A stretch of 64,000 nucleotides of DNA from Podarcis cretensis (lineage: Eukaryota), in assembly GCA_951804945.1 (NCBI GenBank), contig OX638149.1, positions 85,684,001-85,748,000 of the forward strand, given 5' to 3'. Below, one piece after another: positions 7,527-64,000 of this stretch; position 1 is the first letter of the stretch; every line of letters starts with the position of its first letter. The notes below the pieces were generated by a model that worked only from the letters and a program-made list of their open reading frames with translations, did no database searches and was not told where the DNA came from. The position numbers and the translations under genes were made by a program.

Positions 7527-8650
7527 AGTGAGGGGTAAGTATTAGTTTTGGACTATGCCCATTGTCCTAGGAGACCAGGGTTTGAGTCCCTACTTAACCA
7601 TGAATCTTACTGAGTGACCTACCGCCAGTCACTGTCCCTCAGCCTAACCTATCTCAAAGGATTAATTTAGTTACCTTTATTGTAGACAAACGTTTTATAA
7701 CCAATACTTACGATAACATATTTCAACAGTTGCATTCTTTGGATAGACTCTGCATTGTACCATAGAGTTCCTCCTCGTTTCATGATTTAAGTACGAATTA
7801 AGATGCCATCCAATTTCTAGACGATACCGAGTCTCACACAGTGAGAAAAAGCAATTCACACCACAGTTTCTGCGAGTTGTTTGGTGTGTGTTCTCAGTCC
7901 ATGAAGTAAAATGCACTCATAACGTACTTGAAAAGAACCTCAGCATTTTTGTTCTTCGTGTGACAACTGAAGCCATTTCACAACATAGTAATTTCTTTTT
8001 CCAATTCTAAGGAGTGACAAGCCATTATTGAGGATATGTTGTCCAAGAACAAGAACAGCATCGGGATCAGTTACTTTAATGTGGTTTATAGAAACTCCAC
8101 CACTTGCTATGTCACGATACCCCCTTGGTCCATCTACAATAGCATTTGCTTTCCGACACAAATCAAGTACTGTTGTCCCAGGTTCAAGCATCAACTCAAC
8201 ATATGGTGCTTCCCTGAAGAGTTTTGGAAGCTCTTGGTCGGACATAGTCTCTAGTGCTGCTATGTCACTGTAATAAAGGGCCCTTGTGCATCTCTTAGCA
8301 GATTCCAGACCTGCTTTGCCATGAACAAGCTTAGTTACTTCAGCAGCAAGCCGTTTCTGGGGCCCCCACTTCTCAGGCTCTTTAGCATGCATTTCCATAA
8401 TGTGTTGGATTTCCGGAAGAGGGAGGAAAGTGAAAAGCTTCAGATACCTTTTAACAGCGCTATCTGGCTGTCTGAAAAGTACTGATATAACTCAAAGGGA
8501 GAGGTCCTATTTCTGTGTAGCCAAACTGCATTGCCAGCAGATTTCCCCAACTTATCTCAAAGAGTTGTGATGATAAAATGGGGAGAACCATGTATACCAC
8601 CTTGAACTGCTTGGAGGGAAAGGTGGTATATAATAAATACAATAAATAAA
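7527..8650 (+). mobile_element. Old tRNA-derived SINE split in two by the YARS2 retrocopy (halves ~7527-7660 and ~8553-8650)
   Basis: Left half has a B-box-like GGTTTGAGTCCC and CAGTCACTGTCCCTCAGCCTAACC; right half continues GTTGTGATGATAAAATGGGGAGAACCATG to an (AATA)n tail. Confidence 0.7.
7661..8558 (-). pseudogene. YARS2: Processed (intronless) 5'-truncated retrocopy of mitochondrial tyrosyl-tRNA synthetase YARS2, with 3' UTR
   Basis: Translates [23 protein letters not shown], 1-nt frameshift at ~8474-8478, then [57 protein letters not shown] (stop 7940); no introns; minus-strand AATAAA at 7681-7676; direct repeat TATCTCAAAG at 7650-7659 and 8553-8562. Confidence 0.93.
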
Positions 8651-47516: not shown

Positions 47517-50336
47517 ATCTGAACTATTTATCCAGTCCCCTCTGGCTCACCTGTTGGTATAAATGTAACTTCAGGGCACTGTGGCCAAAATTGCTGGACT
47601 CAATTTTCAAAACACATTGGAAAAATCGGAAAAGGCTCGGGAAAATGAGTACTGTAGATACCTGGGGGATGGGGGAAAGATCTCTAATTATAAGCTGCCC
47701 TGGGAACACTGTAGTGTTGAGGATATAGGATAAAGGTGTCAAATAAAAACAGAAGTTTTCATTCTACGTATTGGCTTCTGATAGGAGCAAGTGCTAATCT
47801 AGCAGACGTATATGACAGCTGCTAGCTGAAAACAAATCGGGTAAATCTAGTTCATGAAGACAAAAAGTTCATAATAGCAAGGCCAACTCGTTGGATCCCT
47901 TTACTGAATAGCGTTTGGGGCACTTGTTGAAGATGCCCTGACAGTCTAACAAGTGACTGAGAGAATGCAGGAAATGCAGCATGAAATATGCTGGCCTATA
48001 AGGAAAGCAAAGATCATGTGAGCTCATACTCTCAGATCTGTAAAATTAGAGTGTTAAACATGTCACTTCCTTAGCGTATGTATATGAAAGCCAACTAAAG
48101 AGTCTTTGTAAGAAATTGAATTAACAAAGTGTCTTCTGCAGGTTGGTTTGCAAGCTTCTCTTAGGAAATGAGGTATACTTTGTGTTCATTCTGTCAAAAG
48201 TTAATGCTAATGGTATATCCTTTATAACTGAAACTGAAAGAAATGTTAGAAGGTGGAAGCAAACATCAAAGACTGTAGCTGTCATGCAGTGATGCATTTG
48301 GACTGTCTTGAGCAGCCCTAGGTTTAATCCCTGGCATCTCCCAATTAAAAGGATCTCCAGAAGTAAGACGTCTGTGTGTGGCCTAGCAGATCCACCACCA
48401 GCTCTGGCCTAAATTGACCAGTTTTTCGACTCCATATAAGGCAATATTTTATATGCACCAGCATCTTTGCTACTTTGAAAACACTGTCTCTCATTGGTTG
48501 CACAACTGTCAGATAATAGAGCACCAACAGTCGAGATTAATAGCAAATTAATTTCCTTTGATTTTTTAAAATCTTTATACTTCTGTTTGTGAAAATATTA
48601 ATTTCTCTCTCTTTAGCATCATTTAAGCTGTGCTTTCTATTGCCCCAACTCTCCCTACCCCAACCACCACCCTTCAAAAGCAAGCATTGGTGTATGTTGC
48701 CACCGTTTAACTTAAAGCCTCAAATTTGGGCAATGTTTGTGGCTACAAATTGCTTCCTCCCTCTTGGAGGAAAAGTACCATCTGCTGAGCTTAATTTATA
48801 ATCTCCATATTTGGGGCCTTTAAACATCTCCCTAGAGTCCAATTTCCTAAATCCATACCACCCTCTTCCTCATTCATGGATTGATTAAAACCAGAAAATT
48901 GCTACTTGAGCCAACAGCAGCTTTTGGATGTTCTGATACTCTGCAGACAATTTCTTTGTGTATATCCACAAACCATGAGGTGGGCAAAATATTTTTGATT
49001 TAGATTAATTGATGTTTGGGGTCCCTGTATCACAAGAGAAGGATATGTACTGTGTACCTCTTAATCTGTGTGCTTGGTCTGGAATAAGTTGAGTGTTCTC
49101 TGAGGAAGTTTTTAAGGAAAGATCAGATCATAAGATTCACACTTAAATGCCCACAAGGTTCTAGATTTTGAATTTTGAAGCATCCTGATGTAAAATACAG
49201 AAGGCTCCTGCACCCTCGCTCATGGATATGTTTTGGTGTATCTGCAAAATAGCAATGTATTTTAAAAACCAACATGAGTACAGTCTTTCATACAAGCAAT
49301 TCTACACATGTATAGACAACATGTAACCACATTCAGTGCAAGAGGTGAACAACTCTGCAGACGCTGGCACAACCAGGTCACTGGAGGATGAAAAATAAAT
49401 CCATATACCAGGGGGCTGTGCTAGGCCATATGTCTCTACATATTTATTTGCAAATGTGCATCTCCCCTTCAAATATTCATGCTGTTCACCATGTAGTTAT
49501 TGGTACCAGTTGGCCAGTATTTTCCTGGCCTAATTAGTAAAGCCATGATATCAAAAGTTGGGCACCCTGTGTGAGCACACCAGGAACATCTTACCTGGGT
49601 CAGGTGTAGAATGGTAATGAGGTTCTATATTAAAACAATGTTAATTTGCTCTATTTACTTTATTACCTTATTTATGTATTTACTTACTAGTCATTTGTTA
49701 GCTTTGTTTTGTTCTTCCACCAAAGTATCCTAAGATGCCTGAATCAAGCCAGTGAGGGAAAATAATTAAGTCTACAATCCTCTCTACCTGGGAGCAAATT
49801 CAATGGGACTTACCTTGTGTGTGCATGGCAAATAGCTTGGGATCTAAGTTACTAGATAGTATAGACATACACCATCTGTTAGATTTCTATCCACATAGAT
49901 TTACTACTCAAGCTTGAACCTTCTTGTAGGTAGCTAAGAGAATATTTTAGTTGCTCAAACTGTAGAGTGAGTTGGTACAAGGCTTTACAGGCAGAGAGGG
50001 CATTGTTGCATAATTTTATATTTACAAATGCTCTATGATGTAACATACATAACATGAGAAAGCTTGAAATCTGTGGGATGGGGAAAATTAAATTGTGGGG
50101 AAAATTTAATAGTGGGAAAAGGGGGTCAGATCTTGAAATGGGCTTTCCGGAGTACATTTGTAGTATTAGTATTGTCTCTTACTTTTCCATAAGGTTGTCA
50201 GTCCCCATTCCTGCAAAAACCATTTTTCAGATGAGGTTTAACCCAATATTACTTCTCTAATTGTTACAAAGCAGAGAAAGCCCCTTGGGAGAATTTGAAA
50301 ACCCTTCAGCAAAGGCTGTTTTCTGTTGGTCTAAGC

Positions 50337-51072
50337 CAGGCAAACTACGGTCCAGGGCCCAGATACAGCCCACCAGGCTCATAAATCCAGCCCACGGAAC
50401 CTGCCGCCTGCTCAGCCAGTCCCTGTGCTGAGCTAAAGCGGTGCAGCATGGCATTTCTTTGAAAAGAAGCCGCAGATGCCTCACCGCACTGGAAATGACT
50501 TCTGTGACACTGGCATGGCTTCGGATTGGCTGCAGGAAGTTCCTGCAGCCAATCTGAAGCCTCGCCACCCACATGCAGAGGTAAACCCGGCGCAGCCATG
50601 AACAGAGAGGCTGGTGGGTGGGCAGCGGGTCTGGGCCACGCCATGGGCATCATGACAGGCGCATTGTGGGCTTCAGCCGGAGCTTGGCATGCCTGTTGGC
50701 CCCGTGCCTGGCGCCCGGCTCAGCACACCTGCTGGTGGTGCGCTTGGCGGCCGCGCCGGAACAGCTGGAGGGTGAGCTGCGCGTCACCTGCCCGGCGCTC
50801 CGCATGCATGGGCCACAGCACATGGTGCACGCCACCTGGGAGCTCTGCAGGGACGGGCTGATGGAGCGGCTGCTGCTTGTCAAGAACGCCGGTGAGCGGG
50901 GGGCACCAAAACACGCTCCTGAGCACATGCAGAGTACGTTCCTCCAGGTCTGGAGGCAGCTGCAGGACTGGCTTGCAGGGTATTTATATTTTTCAAAATA
51001 TAGTCCATCCATCCCCACAAGGTCTGAGGGACAGTGGACTGGCCCCCTGATGAAAAAGTTTGCTGACCCCTG
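50337..51072. mobile_element. Non-autonomous hAT element with GC-rich coding-like cargo
   Basis: Right TIR AGTTTGCTGACCCCTG; left TIR CAGG[6-bp gap]CAAACT; GGCCC subterminal motifs; 8-bp TSD GTCTAAGC (50329-50336) / ATCTAAGC (51073-51080). Confidence 0.8.
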
Positions 51073-53097
51073 ATCTAAGCTCATATATCAAACCAGACTA
51101 AAGTTCTAATGTGCATTGGAGGCCTGAATATCCTAGCTGCCATTTAAAAAAAAAAAAAATTATAGTTCTACCTAGATACAGAGGGATGATTTAAAATGAT
51201 ACCGCATCTATAAAAGCATCCAGGACAAGAGAATTTAAGAAGGACCTCACTGGGACTTGGTCACAATCCCATGGCCCTCCTTATAAAATGCAGTCTCTGA
51301 TTCCTGATCTAGAGCCCACTGTCCTACAGGACTGTTCTGTTCGGTTAGCTGTAAATGTTGTTTCATTTTCCTTATTGTCCTGCTGTCTTTCCTCATCCCT
51401 TAACCTCCTACAACTTTGCCTTGACTTCTGCTTGCCCCACTTGTTGATGTCTTTAACAGAGGTACTCTGAAGACACTGCGGGTTTTGAATGGCACTTTGT
51501 TGGTAAAGATTAATTTGTTATGTGCATGCACAGAAACACACACATGGCGAGTCTGCTAAAAGGCTCAAAAACCAGTCATATACCTGACTCGCCATGGATG
51601 GCATGAGCCAAACTTACAGCTCCTGATATTGACTGCTATTTTGTGTATTAAGAAATTAAATATGAGTTATTACTAGTGGGCTTCATCTAATAATCTGCGA
51701 AACACTTCTGCTTGTGACTAACTTGTGGAATTTGGCTGACAAATCTGGATTTTTACTTGCACATTTTGACTTGAGTGTCGGAGACGGGATTGAATTTTGC
51801 TATTTTACTCTGTTGTTGGCTTCCAACTTAACATATGGAAATGGTCACAAAATCTTGGGCATTCGTATTATGTTGATGACTCACAAGTTAAACTGAAGCT
51901 AAGCAGCAATTTTCCAACCTGAACCCAATAGTCTATTGGAACTAAGCCTGAAATCCTGAACCAGCTTGGTTCTAATTTTTAATAATCTGTTTCAAAATAT
52001 CTCTATTCTGTGTTTTCTCCATTCCTAGCCCTCCTGTGTGGTGTTACAATGTAATAATAAACCACCTAATTCAAGTGATCTTGAATAGCTATTCTAGGAG
52101 GTTCTAGAGGGTTGTTTTTTTCATCCACAAAGCTGCTTTTCAAAAGTGGAAGCTACAGTCACCAAATGTTTTCCCTGCCAAGTGATCCCATTAATAAAAG
52201 CTGAGTGAAGTGTGTCAAGCCATCTATCCATGCAAACATCCTCAAGCATGCAGGGGACTGAAGGCTTTAAGCTATCTTCTCTCAAAGAGGTACCTGGTGT
52301 TCAACAAGCAGCTGTGTGACTGGGGAGATGGGTTTTTGATCCAGAGAAGGGCAGTGAGCCATTTTCTAGAAAAAGTCAGAATGGCAGCTTCAGAAATAAC
52401 CCAATCAAGTTGTCATAAAGATCCTAGTTCTATCTTCCACTGATTTCTCAGTCAAGCTTATCTTCTGCCCCACAGAGCTGAATTCAAGTAACAGTGCACA
52501 CATCTGCAATGCCAAAAAGCTGAACCCAAGAGAGGTTGCAGCTTAAAAAGCTGCCCAGGCATTTCCTTGCCATGGAACGGTGTTCAAAACCCAAACAATT
52601 TTTATTTAATTGTTTTTTAAAAAAATAGCACCTTATCTACATCACCTTTGCTTCAGACTTATTTCTTCTTTTGTCAATAGTATGTAAAATGCTTCAAAGA
52701 TTTATCAGATTTTATCTGTTGCTCGTAATGAATTTTGCCTCTACAACTTTGAAGACCCAAAGTAATTTGTATCTCACAGTAAGGTAATAGCTTTAACAGT
52801 GTAGACCAGAATTAAGGGGAAGTTGCTACATGATTACAGTATAGGGCCTCTCCCCTACTCAGATCCCTTCTATTTCTGCCTAGCAGGTAATATTCCTTTC
52901 CAGTTCAGGATACTTTAAATATACAGCAAGGGGATACATACAGCAAGACAGAAATTCCACTCCCTGCCTTCCACTGTCATTTGGTTAGTTCATAACCTCT
53001 AGTTCAGAGATTTTCTAGCAAGACTTCTCAAGAAGCTGTTCAGAAGCTTCCTCCATGAGATCAGTACCAACAGACAAATTAACCTGAAAGTGAAAAG

Positions 53098-59283: not shown

Positions 59284-61429
59284 AACAAAATAATATGGAA
59301 GAAGCTAAGGGACACTCAAGACATATCCCATGACAGATGGCCTATCATGGTGCTATAAGATCCAGTCCCCCAAAAGCTTAGAAAGTATCAATGTCTAAAA
59401 CCTTTTTACTAGAAAGCTGCAGGAGGCAGGGATCCACCACAGATTGGGGTTCCCAATCAAACTGGTTCTCATGAGAGTTATAACGTCATTAATCGCAAGG
59501 AATCACTGCAAAGCTATAGAGTTGCTGGAAACGCTGTGCAGTATCTGGAACTCCCTGCAGAAATAACTATGGATGACCCCCAGGAAACAGGAAATAAGGA
59601 ATTAGAAGAACCCAGATGGTGTATGGGAAGAAGTGTCTGGAAACTGGCATTCCAGGAGAATAGCTCCATATATAGCCCAGCATTTATTCCTGGTCAATCC
59701 GGGTTCACACTTATCAAGGTTTCACTGAGCACCTGTAGAAATCTATAGCAGTGACTCCATTTTACCACCTACACACTATTTTTGCTAAATGTCTCTGCTG
59801 TTTTATTTAGTAATGGTGCTTTGCCACCGTAGCTTCCCCTTCAGAGTGAGTGCATTAATAAGAAGGGCACATGTTTCAGTTGACTAGACATGTGCCTTGT
59901 CTCTCTCCTTGTAGGCACTCAGCTATGCAAAGCTGAAAACAAAAAGGTAGCTAGAGAGGTAGGGTTGTTTAAGGAAATAACATTGCAACCTGTGTGCCTC
60001 AAACTAATAAATGGCACTTCAGTGTGGAAACGGTATTAATCACAATGAGGAAAACAGTTCATATAGAAGAACTGGATGAACCACTTTCTGGAGATGTCTG
60101 CCTAACAGCAGGATTTAATGGCTGTGAGAAAACCCTGTAATAGGTGTGCAGGGAGAGGGAGGCAGGACAAGGTAGGCCTGGTTTACTCAGGCATCTCCAT
60201 CAACTGATTTCTGTACATTTGACTGGCTACTGACCAGGTGAATAAATCCATGGAAAATAACTGCATTTAAGGGTATGAACATTATTGTGTGTATGACAGC
60301 CCATTTCCACCCAGCAGTCAAGGCTGTTGCTTGCTTTTGCAGTCATGGTGATGAACCTCACGTATTATTCAACCCCTAGTCACGTCAGGCAAACTGAAAC
60401 CACATATTTTGAATAAAGTCAACCTAACTTCCCAATAGAGATAGGAATACTAATAGAATAAGAACAGCTTGATTTTTCACCCGGGAGGTTTTTAAATAAA
60501 CATTTGGCAGGAGAATGTTTTGTGTAATTTGTTCTACTGTATCTACCTTCCAGACAGGTGTCAAAGCCCTAGTATGCAAGGCCCAATGAAAGGATGTAGG
60601 TCTTGGTTGAATCTTAAGGAAAGCTTCTTAAGTGTTCAAGTAAAGCAGTAGCCACCTAGAAGGGAACCAGTGGCCTTCTAGACGCTGAACTCCTAACTCC
60701 CATCAGTTTCAGCCAGCATGGCCATTGATCAGGGATGGTGGGAGCTGAACTTCAGCACCATCTGAAGGGACACAATTTGGGCACACGTCAGGCATGGAAA
60801 ATCTTTGCCGCAAGCCAAGGCAAAAATCTATACGGTCACAAAATCTGGTGCTTCTACTCACAACTGAAACTTAACACACAGGGGAAAATGAACTATTCCA
60901 ACTCAACATACCTAGGACCATACCAGTTTGCCAGCATGAAGAAAACTGAAGAAAACTCTTATTGTGGAAACTTTAAGAGAGTAGAACTCTGACCATTCCT
61001 TAGCCCTCTGGCTGGGATTAACTACATATTGTATTTTTAATGTGTACTCTTCTCTCTAGCCTACAGTGCACACACAAGAACTTACTTATTGTAGGTCTTT
61101 AGCTCCCAAATTTGTACCTGTCAGAAAAGCAAAGGACAGTCTTTTGGTCTTGAGAATGTCTGCTCCTGAATTTTAATCCTGAATATTTTCAGAAGGGTAG
61201 CCACGTCAGTCTCTTGCAGCAAAAGCAATCTGGAGCCTTGTAGCGCCTTAAATACTGTAGTAGTTTGTTCGTTAGCCTTCAAGGGGTCACGCTGCTCCTT
61301 TGTCGTGCAGACCATCAGGATGTCCTTGAGAGACCAGAGGCCAAACGTGAATGTCAAAATTCTGCGAAACGGGTTGCAAGGAATTATTGTTGTGGCCAAT
61401 ATTTTATGCGGGATGCTACCGGACGTGCT

Positions 61430-62860
61430 AAGGCAACGGCCGGGTGAAATCATGGCCCGTTAGGCCTCCGAGCGCTCCTCGATTTGAGCGCCCGCCGCAG
61501 CATATTGCCTGGGGCCGCGCTTGAATCGAAAGGGTCTGAAAGACACCCGGCCTGCGCCAAGCCAGCTGCAAGTCTCCCCTGGGCCTCCAGAGGGCGGCCT
61601 CGGGCGACTAACTTTCTTCTCTCTGTGTGTGTCTATGTACAAAGCAGGCTTCCCTCGAGGGGCGGCTGTTGCTTTAAGCTGGCCCTGGAGCGAGCGGAGA
61701 GGGGAAGCCAGAAGCTGCGCGGCGGGCCCCGGAGGTCCTTTCCCCCTGCGGAAAAACAAAACCACCTACGGGCGGCAACAGCAGCAGCAGCAGGAGGAGG
61801 AAGAAGAAGAAGAAGAAGGAGAGCGTGTGCGAGTTTCGGATCCGCTCAGCTCCCGCCTTAAGCGCCCCGCATTGAATCAGCGCGTGGCTCCTCGGCTGCG
61901 CTTGCCTCGGGCACTTGCGCGACGCTGCTTCTCCGCCTTGGATCGCAATCAGAGGAAGAAGAAAAGCGCTGACAGATAAAGGCAGCAAGCCGCCGCCGCC
62001 GCCGCCGCCACCCCCCACCCCGCGCCGCCGCCGCCGCTCCGCGTTGACAGGCAGCGGGAGCAACAGCAGCGGCCGCGGCAGCCCTCCCTGCACGCGCGCG
62101 CGCAACACACACAAGACGCACACAAGACGCACACACACACTCAGGACACACACCGAGAGAGCCCGCCAGCCCTGGAGGAGGAAGGCAAGCCAGCAGCGGA
62201 GGGCAGCGGGGCCAAGCCGCAGCCCAGGAACTAAGGAAGGGCCGCCACTTCTCTGCACGGGCATCATGTGGGTCTGTTTGTAAGAGGGGTTGGGGGGCCA
62301 GATCCCCTCTCTTCGCCTCCCCCCCTCGCTCTCCCTCCCCTCCCCCTAGCACAGGCGGCCACACACACGCACGCACACACACCCACACCCCGACCGGGAG
62401 GAGGCGGCGGCGAGGGAGCCGCAGAGGCCGCTGGAATAATAAGAGAATTGATTGTGAAAAAGGAAAGCAGAAGAAATATTTCCTGGCAAGATGGCCGACT
62501 TGGAGGCTGTGCTCGCCGATGTGAGCTACTTGATGGCTATGGAGAAAAGTAAATCCACTCCGGCAGCCCGGGCCAGCAAGAAGATCGTGCTACCTGAGCC
62601 GAGGTGAGCCCGGCAAGGGGGGCAGGCGGAGGGGGCAGGTGCGGCGCCGGGGCCCCGCGCGAGGCGCGCCGGGCTTAGGATGGGCGCTGGGTGTTTGTGT
62701 ACGCGAGCGAGCGCATAAATGGGTCTGTATATGACTGAGCTGAAATGCACCGAGCCGACTTGCCCTTGGCCCAAGCAGCAGGGACCGTGATCTACCCCGT
62801 CCATGTAGCGGGGTGGAGTGGGGTGGAAAGAGGGCTCGCTAAAGCGGCGTCTTTCCGTGT
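61430..62860 (+). promoter_or_regulatory. GRK2: CpG-island promoter and 5' UTR of GRK2
   Basis: Very GC/CpG-rich with (GCC)n tracts, surrounding the GRK2 ATG. Confidence 0.88.
62491..62603 (+). CDS. GRK2: G protein-coupled receptor kinase 2 (beta-ARK1), first coding exon
   Basis: aagATGg; [37 protein letters not shown], then AG|gtgagc (113 nt, phase 2). The GRK3 N-terminus is nearly identical; GRK2 is chosen by synteny with KDM2A. Confidence 0.93.
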
Positions 62861-64000
62861 ACGTGGTTGTGTTGATATAGTGTGGGCATGATGATGGATT
62901 GTCAGGGTGTCCTGTCTCTGCTTCCTGATTCTTCATTCGGCTGCTCAGATCCTTGGAGATCATTCCCCCAGCACCTCTTGCAGTAGCAAACCCCCTCCTT
63001 CTCTGTTTTTTCCTACCCACACGTCACAATTCCACCCACCCCAACACAAACACACATAGTGATTCTCTCTGTGTATGTGTAATATGCAATTGTGTTAACC
63101 ACAGCAGAAAAGCAGGCTAGTAAATCAGGCTGTATATATGCCTATATAGTGCTTTTTTCTGAGCAGTCCAGCAACTGTGTTACTGGGTGTTATGAGGAGC
63201 ATACAGCTTGGCTCTGGCAGTGCCTGGAGTTGGCCTCAAGATGCCCTAACCACGGTGTTCTGTTTTGGGTGGGTGGTTTGTTTGTTTTTGTTTTTGAAAA
63301 TCTGTCTGTACAGACCTGTGCAATTCAGTGCTGTGTCTTGGTAATGTGCTGTTAGATAGCGACCAGGCCTTTGCCCACCTTGCAGCTGCCCTGAGTTCAA
63401 GCAGGAACTGGGTCTGCACAAACAACGTTGCAAGCGTGCACAAATGCAGTGCAAGGTTACCATCGTGCAGATAAGGGGAAATGTGTTAGGCAGGGGCTCT
63501 GCTTCATGTAAGGGCATTTTCTTGCTGGGAGACACAAGTGGGAGCATTAAGTCAAAAAATCTGACTGGTCATCCAGGTGGGTCAAAGGTGCTTTGGTTTC
63601 GGCCAACCAACCCTTAACTCTGCTTCCTGGCAGCAGTTACCAAGGGCAACAGGGTGGGGCCTGACAAGCATCCTGCACCTTCAGCACATGGGCAAATGGA
63701 GGCCTTCCTCGCTCTCCTTTCTTCCCTTCCACCTCCCATGTGACATCTGGCTTACCCTACCCTTCCCTGTTCTAGCCAATAACCTTGGGTTGTCCCCATT
63801 GTGGGAGAAGTCTGTTCAAGCAGAACTGCTCCCCTGCCACTGAAGGCAGGACGGAGGGTCTCTGAGAAAGCTCCAAAGGGCCCTTTTCCGCAAGAAATGG
63901 CAAGCGGCCCTTTCAAAGGATGATGCAGATGTGTTACCATGGCAATGCCTGAAAGCCCCAGCAGCCTCTGTGCTCTTCCCCCCCCACACGGTTGCTGGTT

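Follow-up and report, generated by a model that had tools for sequence, protein, structure and literature searches.

Gene capture by transposons is best known from plants, where Pack-MULEs take up host sequences with a bias towards 5' gene ends and high GC content. Among the tetrapod hAT transposons, the non-autonomous Charlie/Buster-type elements include MER58-like sequences and lizard hAT MITEs. Plant Pack-TYPE elements, including Pack-hAT, have been described with multi-gene cargo (PMC8903248). For animals, multicopy capture by cut-and-paste transposons is reported as rare: Tan et al. describe 370 Pack-TIRs in 100 genomes with four multicopy cases (1.4%), and the illustrated multicopy case is Pack-hAT-N8_XT of the frog, which carries the CAPSL 5' UTR and is present in three copies (Tan et al., 2021; PMC8277862). 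According to the same source, Ssk-FB4 of Drosophila has one junction with microhomology and another with newly added bases, and no case is listed for the one lizard genome surveyed, anoCar2 (PMC8277862). Since this survey was aimed at young cases, old high-copy Pack-TIRs have perhaps been missed.

Here, we describe an element that extends this picture. The window, the whole stretch of 64,000 nucleotides from Podarcis cretensis that was analysed, contains a non-autonomous hAT-type transposon of 736 bp at 50337-51072. In our estimation, with a probability of about 0.93, it belongs to a high-copy family of such transposons, as an old copy with a frameshift, and its interior consists of exon 1 and the beginning of intron 1 of the sepiapterin reductase gene (SPR), probably captured once from genomic DNA by template switching and probably spread by a transposase provided from elsewhere. 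A first, sequence-only reading of this DNA had proposed hAT-type TIRs and an 8-bp target-site duplication, and both are present with the imperfections given in Table 1. TIRs of 16 bp are seen across the aligned copies of the SPR-carrying family; among the pairs listed by the repeat finder the two TIRs of the window copy were not paired, probably because of the 6-bp gap in the left one. The GC content of 100-bp bins amounts to 0.51-0.76 in 50300-50999 versus 0.31-0.49 in the neighbouring bins from 49800 to 51599, where it is typically about 0.38. Thus, the interior is GC-rich as originally noted, but the rise is not an abrupt switch at about 50590, as GC is already elevated at the edge of the element.

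The mapped exons of a KDM2A-like gene span 10870-43427 on the plus strand, and the element follows at a distance of 6.9 kb from the last of them; the next CpG island, near the window end (61000-63000), is about 10 kb further on. The element is therefore placed outside the mapped coding exons, a map that comprises coding exons and not the 3' UTR. Elsewhere in the window, a frame with tyrosyl-tRNA synthetase domains is found on the minus strand (7943-8491). The 57-bp hairpin of the left arm is also part of a different, very abundant short element, as seen from loose ends in related runs, so the left arm itself may be a mosaic. Contigs from three presumed-RNA runs covered just the shared ends and the hairpin and are uninformative on expression either way.

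Table 1. Features of the window element and of related elements with their donor loci.
Feature	Position	Strand	Basis, donor or remark
Left 8-bp target-site duplication	50329..50336	+	sequence; one mismatch to the right copy
Left TIR, 6 bp deleted	50337..50346	+	alignment of 22 copies; orthologous contigs of organisms D and G have retained the 6 bp
Left arm, common to sister elements with other cargo; contains 57-bp hairpin (50511-50567)	50347..50591	+	
6 bp upstream of the SPR ATG; left capture junction within 5-6 bp microhomology with arm motif	50592..50597	+	
Captured SPR coding exon 1	50598..50891	+	donor L056:4638-4965 = G000:C9 about 1,089,137-1,089,464
Start of captured SPR intron 1, real GT donor at 50892-50893	50892..50971	+	donor L056:4966-5038
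Right arm; first ~13 bp match neither donor nor cargo-free relatives, remainder as in cargo-free short elements	50972..51056	+	
Right TIR, 16 bp, intact	51057..51072	+	sequence; alignment of copies
Right 8-bp target-site duplication	51073..51080	+	sequence
TBC1D10A sister element	L070:290-1736	minus	donor L147:1501-2738 (G000:C16 about 24.066 Mb)
C14-exon elements	L209, L212		donor L225:4098-4514 (G000:C14 about 4.640 Mb, minus); CpG-island first exon
Single-copy sister element	L223		donor L227 (G000:C6 about 64.70 Mb); CpG island
Further sister elements	L224, L230-L233		donor L229 (G000:C4 about 74.18 Mb); CpG island; L224 joins two donor pieces ~400 bp apart

The identity of the cargo follows from protein and genome searches. 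The long stop-free frame recognised at the outset extends over 162 codons (50585-51070), and the impression that it does not resemble a hAT transposase proved right: for residues 29-107 of its translation (P0001), the suggested search against host proteins yielded sepiapterin reductase as the sole PDB molecule at E<0.01 (8/8 sequences, best E 2.6e-5), the matched chains being mammalian SPR. Pfam and NCBIfam scans of both long window frames returned no real match and did not recognise SPR, which is expected for a decayed piece of 75 residues, and when P0001 was used as query against protein sequences, a single uncharacterised model was retrieved instead of SPR. Using the TIGR01500 profile, we found three collinear exons at G000:C9:1,089,185-1,091,779, an intact SPR gene on another contig than the window. 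Exons 2 and 3 are matched at this locus only; the other 16 matches of the profile comprise 14 single exon-1 pieces at cargo-bearing places and two weak, unrelated ones. The search for an intron-flanked donor thus led to a single intron-containing SPR gene, and with no left- or right-arm match in the 9.9-kb donor stretch L056 or in the merged C9 locus, this parental copy is not flanked by the transposon. That exon 1 on C9 would itself be an exapted transposon copy is not to be expected, given the alignment of this segment to mammalian SPR chains.

The captured stretch comprises the 328-bp coding exon together with the 6 bp ahead of its ATG and the first 73 bp of intron 1; the interior of the window element is consequently SPR exon 1 plus the start of intron 1. 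Window positions 50592-50971 are 75% identical to the donor L056:4632-5038 (313/417), and the majority line of 22 copies reaches 92% (382/417). The supposition that a CpG-island first exon of a host gene had been captured is in line with the CpG o/e of 1.05 in the donor segment. As intron 1 sequence and the GT donor are both within the cargo, a retrocopy is excluded and the capture occurred at the DNA level. The splice donor was misplaced in the sequence-only reading, as G/GTATTT at about 50980 belongs to the right arm, outside of the captured host DNA. Its ATG at 50598 is the true SPR start codon but not the start of the long frame, because a 1-bp deletion after 50668 puts it outside of that frame. 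Besides this frameshift, the window exon shows a family-wide 3-bp gap and a 30-bp deletion after 50807, and the captured intron part contains a 10-bp stretch that is found across the family and absent from the present donor.

Searches of the own genome returned 43 matches (40/107 candidates scored), 71 matches (110/110) and 41 matches (40/127). The 144 fetched loci merge into 76 places, four of which are cargo-free; 72 match the cargo, and 70 are left after removal of the donor and of an unrelated 60-bp match. Pooling of the match tables gives at least 86 distinct cargo-bearing places on 19 contigs, a lower bound for which the ends were inspected in part of the places. Both ends could be called in 48 of the 70 cargo copies, with 8-bp flanks that are identical in 26 cases, differ by one base in 11 and by two or more in another 11, some of the latter being end-calling errors. 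All 37 duplications with at most one mismatch are different from each other, and cross-paired control flanks reached this level in 15/2256 pairs compared to 37/48 for the real ones. The centre of the duplication is TA: 34/37 duplications have T as their fourth base, and likewise 34/37 have A as their fifth. In most full-length copies the cargo starts and stops at the same donor positions, so that the proposed search for TIR-bounded copies with identical cargo has found many of them with common breakpoints. The SPR-carrying elements are a high-copy transposon family, dispersed far from the parent gene. One copy (L025:1333-1503) is rearranged in that a right end in inverted orientation precedes the cargo. 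In addition, a UniRef 'uncharacterized protein' (P0003) reads through the SPR exon, the intron and a transposon arm; its best local match, at 85%, is the copy L095:1549-1992 (G000:C19 about 24.548 Mb), which belongs to the eight open-frame copies, and P0003 is likely a false gene model.

The duplication length (8 bp in 37/48 copies with at most one mismatch) and the short TIRs are those of hAT transposons. No autonomous hAT with the same ends was found near 65 of 69 matches to the PF05699 dimerisation domain (150/251 candidates scored, mostly 1.5 kb per side); the hAT label is thus based on ends and target duplication, by which the family would be a non-autonomous member of this superfamily. 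The domain matches at G000:C4:61,289,727 and C9:73,864,590 lie in open frames of 730 codons with identical scores at four places and possibly represent a young autonomous hAT of another family; these loci do not have the ends of the SPR-carrying family.

For the decay analysis 52 of the 70 copies were used, leaving out 18 with large insertions or deletions. Nine positions differ from the present donor in 46-50 of the 52 copies, the 3-bp gap is common to 50/52 and the 10-bp intron stretch to most, and at 11 diagnostic sites no copy has more than three donor states. Such common departures from the donor speak for a single capture and later amplification, where each difference between donor and family may date from the master element or from a later change in the gene. 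Outside of CpGs, the distance of copies to the majority has a median of 4.7% (1.5-6.9%) with 2.8% for the closest pair, and donor and majority differ in 6/258 columns. At the 68 donor CpGs (3223 cells), 1920 cells are TG/CA, as expected after methylation, and 1046 are still CG. The pN/pS ratio is 0.87-1.08 in the SPR frame and 0.90-1.36 in the other two frames, and ATG, frame length and freedom from stops are kept together in 8/52 copies. Hence, the copies evolve neutrally with heavy CpG decay. A functional SPR paralogue as explanation of the window copy was rejected by the frameshift, by this pN/pS ratio and by the restriction of exons 2-3 to the donor.

Contigs of the related organisms D and G extend from the left flank into the element at the same site (over 217 and 152 bases of it, respectively). 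Their divergence from the window is about 2-3%, and they still have the 6 TIR bases lost by the window copy. The insertion therefore predates those splits and the TIR loss came later. The missing 6 bp had been taken as the probable reason for immobility; the gap is real, but the explanation does not hold given the full TIR of these orthologues and the old age of the whole sampled family. As the divergence to D and G is below the copy-to-master distance, the amplification burst is probably older still than the splits of the sampled related organisms, and commonly used rates would put it at tens of millions of years. Organisms F and H, without bridging of the left junction under the 31-base rule, were left uncounted. 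No empty orthologous site was found in the four related organisms, none of which could be recognised as an outgroup with respect to the insertion.

The two capture junctions differ in structure. On the left side, the junction falls within a microhomology of 5-6 bp between the bases before the SPR ATG and the hairpin-arm motif of relatives that have no SPR cargo; on the right side, filler of about 13 bp is present. For the long left arm, no exact parent free of cargo was found, and the microhomology was consequently judged from the related arm motif in a handful of loci. From these signatures we infer a sequence of events in which i) a short hAT element would have undergone a break or fork stalling within its hairpin-rich arm, ii) the template would have switched to the open SPR CpG island at the microhomology and returned with the filler, iii) the product with both ends would have been amplified in trans by transposase, iv) a second family, with an inverted ATG segment fused to part of the first exon of another gene, would have descended from an early master, and v) the copies would have been methylated and dead before the split of the sampled related organisms. 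Template switching with amplification in trans is the most likely route, and its main rival is gap repair at the founder site. According to this rival, the same capture took place when the gap left by an excised resident element was filled by ordinary repair, independent of transposition, and amplification followed only later. Left microhomology and right filler fit any template-switch repair, gap filling is described as the source of most single-copy Pack-TIRs (Tan et al., 2021; PMC8277862), and the sister element L223 is present as a single copy plus its donor. However, gap filling is reported to be strongly biased to nearby donors (Tan et al., 2021; PMC8277862), whereas the donor stretch is free of any arm of the family and the copies are distal from it, so that we consider gap repair the less probable of the two, if still a serious possibility.

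Two further explanations are both extremely improbable and were rejected. One assumes a processed pseudogene or segmental SPR duplicate that became bracketed by a transposon by chance, for which nothing speaks beyond the similarity to SPR itself; the cargo crosses the exon/intron junction into intron 1 and does not contain exon 2 or 3, and the breakpoints are fixed while the 37 duplications are all different. The other regards the GC-rich interior as ordinary transposon sequence with a frame arising by chance. The interior is indeed repeated in the genome and overlapping long frames are common in GC-rich DNA, but a family majority with 92% identity to a coding exon of an intact three-exon gene, together with the mammalian SPR match, leaves hardly any room for it.

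Besides the SPR cargo, pieces of other genes have been captured by elements with the same ends. The left-arm motif gave 31 exact matches compared to 0 for the reversed control, and the 30 loci fetched comprise 19 with SPR (by BLAST), six with a second cargo and five others including one truncated SPR copy. The second cargo is exon 1 plus intron sequence of TBC1D10A, whose donor on C16 is 96% identical to a protein so named and is followed by the later exons. Both ends are present in 20 of the 29 fetched copies of this element, 16 of them with a duplication, and a shortened form is high-copy. The element does not contain a repeat of about 210 bp that is now in the donor intron, so the capture likely came first. 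A third donor, found in two elements, is a CpG-island first exon on C14, which is likely that of RORA; this name is supported only by exons for a nuclear-receptor zinc finger, located 343 kb downstream in the same orientation, as direct naming of the exon was unsuccessful. At L215:1021-1807, yet another element has these ends, and its interior is GC-rich as well.

The C14 exon also occurs in a chimera family (L299-L328; e.g., L217:1080-1722), which combines a piece of SPR exon 1 with a piece of the C14 exon and has the ATG segment inverted between short inverted repeats. It is found at at least 40 places (40/108 candidates scored), and 26 of 30 fetched copies are two-ended, 19 with a duplication. 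The left junction region and the 3-bp gap are as in the family of the window, and two donor states are kept, for which reason the chimera is likely derived from an earlier master. Taken together, the family captured gene starts serially: SPR, TBC1D10A, likely RORA and two further CpG-island pieces (Table 1). All five traced donors have a CpG o/e of 0.69-1.05, compared to 6/159 window tiles that pass the island threshold; this count left out five truncated left arms (L082, L183, L187/L076, L199 and L221). Since the traced interiors were picked for their GC-rich look, the donor bias towards CpG islands is suggestive only. Having captured at least four CpG-island segments other than SPR, the family works like plant Pack-MULEs.

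In this context, the nature of the main cargo raises the question of a function. In the common wall lizard, orange colour maps to SPR on chromosome 9, with the association reported in non-coding DNA just upstream of the gene and with expression differing among colour morphs (10.1101/481895); the donor gene found here likewise lies on contig 9. One may thus imagine functional copies that either give rise to small RNAs acting in trans on the SPR CpG island or offer an exon with ATG and splice donor to host transcripts. This is in line with the retention of the GT donor in 47/52 copies and of the ATG in 36/52, with the cross-talk reported for captured fragments in maize (10.1101/777037) and with the morph-specific SPR expression (10.1101/481895); the gene model P0003, reading through one copy, was also counted in its favour. 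In contrast, the copies change neutrally, their full-cargo identity to today's donor is at most 84%, and the donor exon, with its CpG o/e of 1.05, does not look methylated in the germ line. Furthermore, the cargo begins 6 bp before the ATG, and the colour-associated upstream region is therefore likely not part of it. In view of the preserved CpGs of the donor exon and the neutral drift of the copies, we consider functional copies improbable, including any effect on colour or host function today. The broadest version, in which this lizard hAT lineage is a vertebrate counterpart of the Pack-MULEs that harvests and recombines CpG-island first exons, with more than 100 SPR-bearing copies still feeding small RNAs or an ATG-plus-splice-donor exon into host regulation including that of SPR, appears equally unlikely.

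Independent of any function, the copies are of practical use. They are numerous, old and share their breakpoints, which allows direct tests of capture with respect to junction signatures and CpG-island bias, and the ancestral first exon of SPR is preserved in them as a dated record. On the other hand, they lead to false gene models such as P0003, and studies of SPR exon 1 in these lizards would do well to mask them. Among the literature matches listed, a set that lies outside of subscription papers and repeat databases, there is no description of the element, and repeat databases may hold a consensus of the family unlabelled.

With regard to known systems, the terminal motif, the 8-bp duplication with central TA and short cargo-free relatives with the same ends are shared with the Charlie/Buster-type hATs of tetrapods, from which the SPR family differs in its interior of host gene DNA. 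The capture and movement suspected from the start is that of a Pack-TIR, under whose definition the element falls, and the closest known kind is the multicopy Pack-TIR. Like the multicopy Pack-TIRs of animals, it has TIR ends around DNA of a distant parent gene, distinct duplications and GC-rich cargo, and its junctions, one with microhomology and one with added bases, resemble those reported for Ssk-FB4; unlike them, it exists in at least 86 copies, carries a coding exon and has sister families with other genes. A true Pack-MULE is ruled out by the 16-bp TIRs and 8-bp duplications, as Pack-MULEs have long MULE TIRs, duplications of 9-10 bp and a plant rather than a vertebrate host. What the family has in common with plant Pack-MULEs and Pack-TYPE elements is the serial uptake of GC-rich gene starts, the formation of multicopy families and the joining of pieces from several genes. 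Gene capture has thus reached a plant-like scale in one lizard lineage, where it drew on five donors or more and produced three high-copy families as well as a chimera of two genes.
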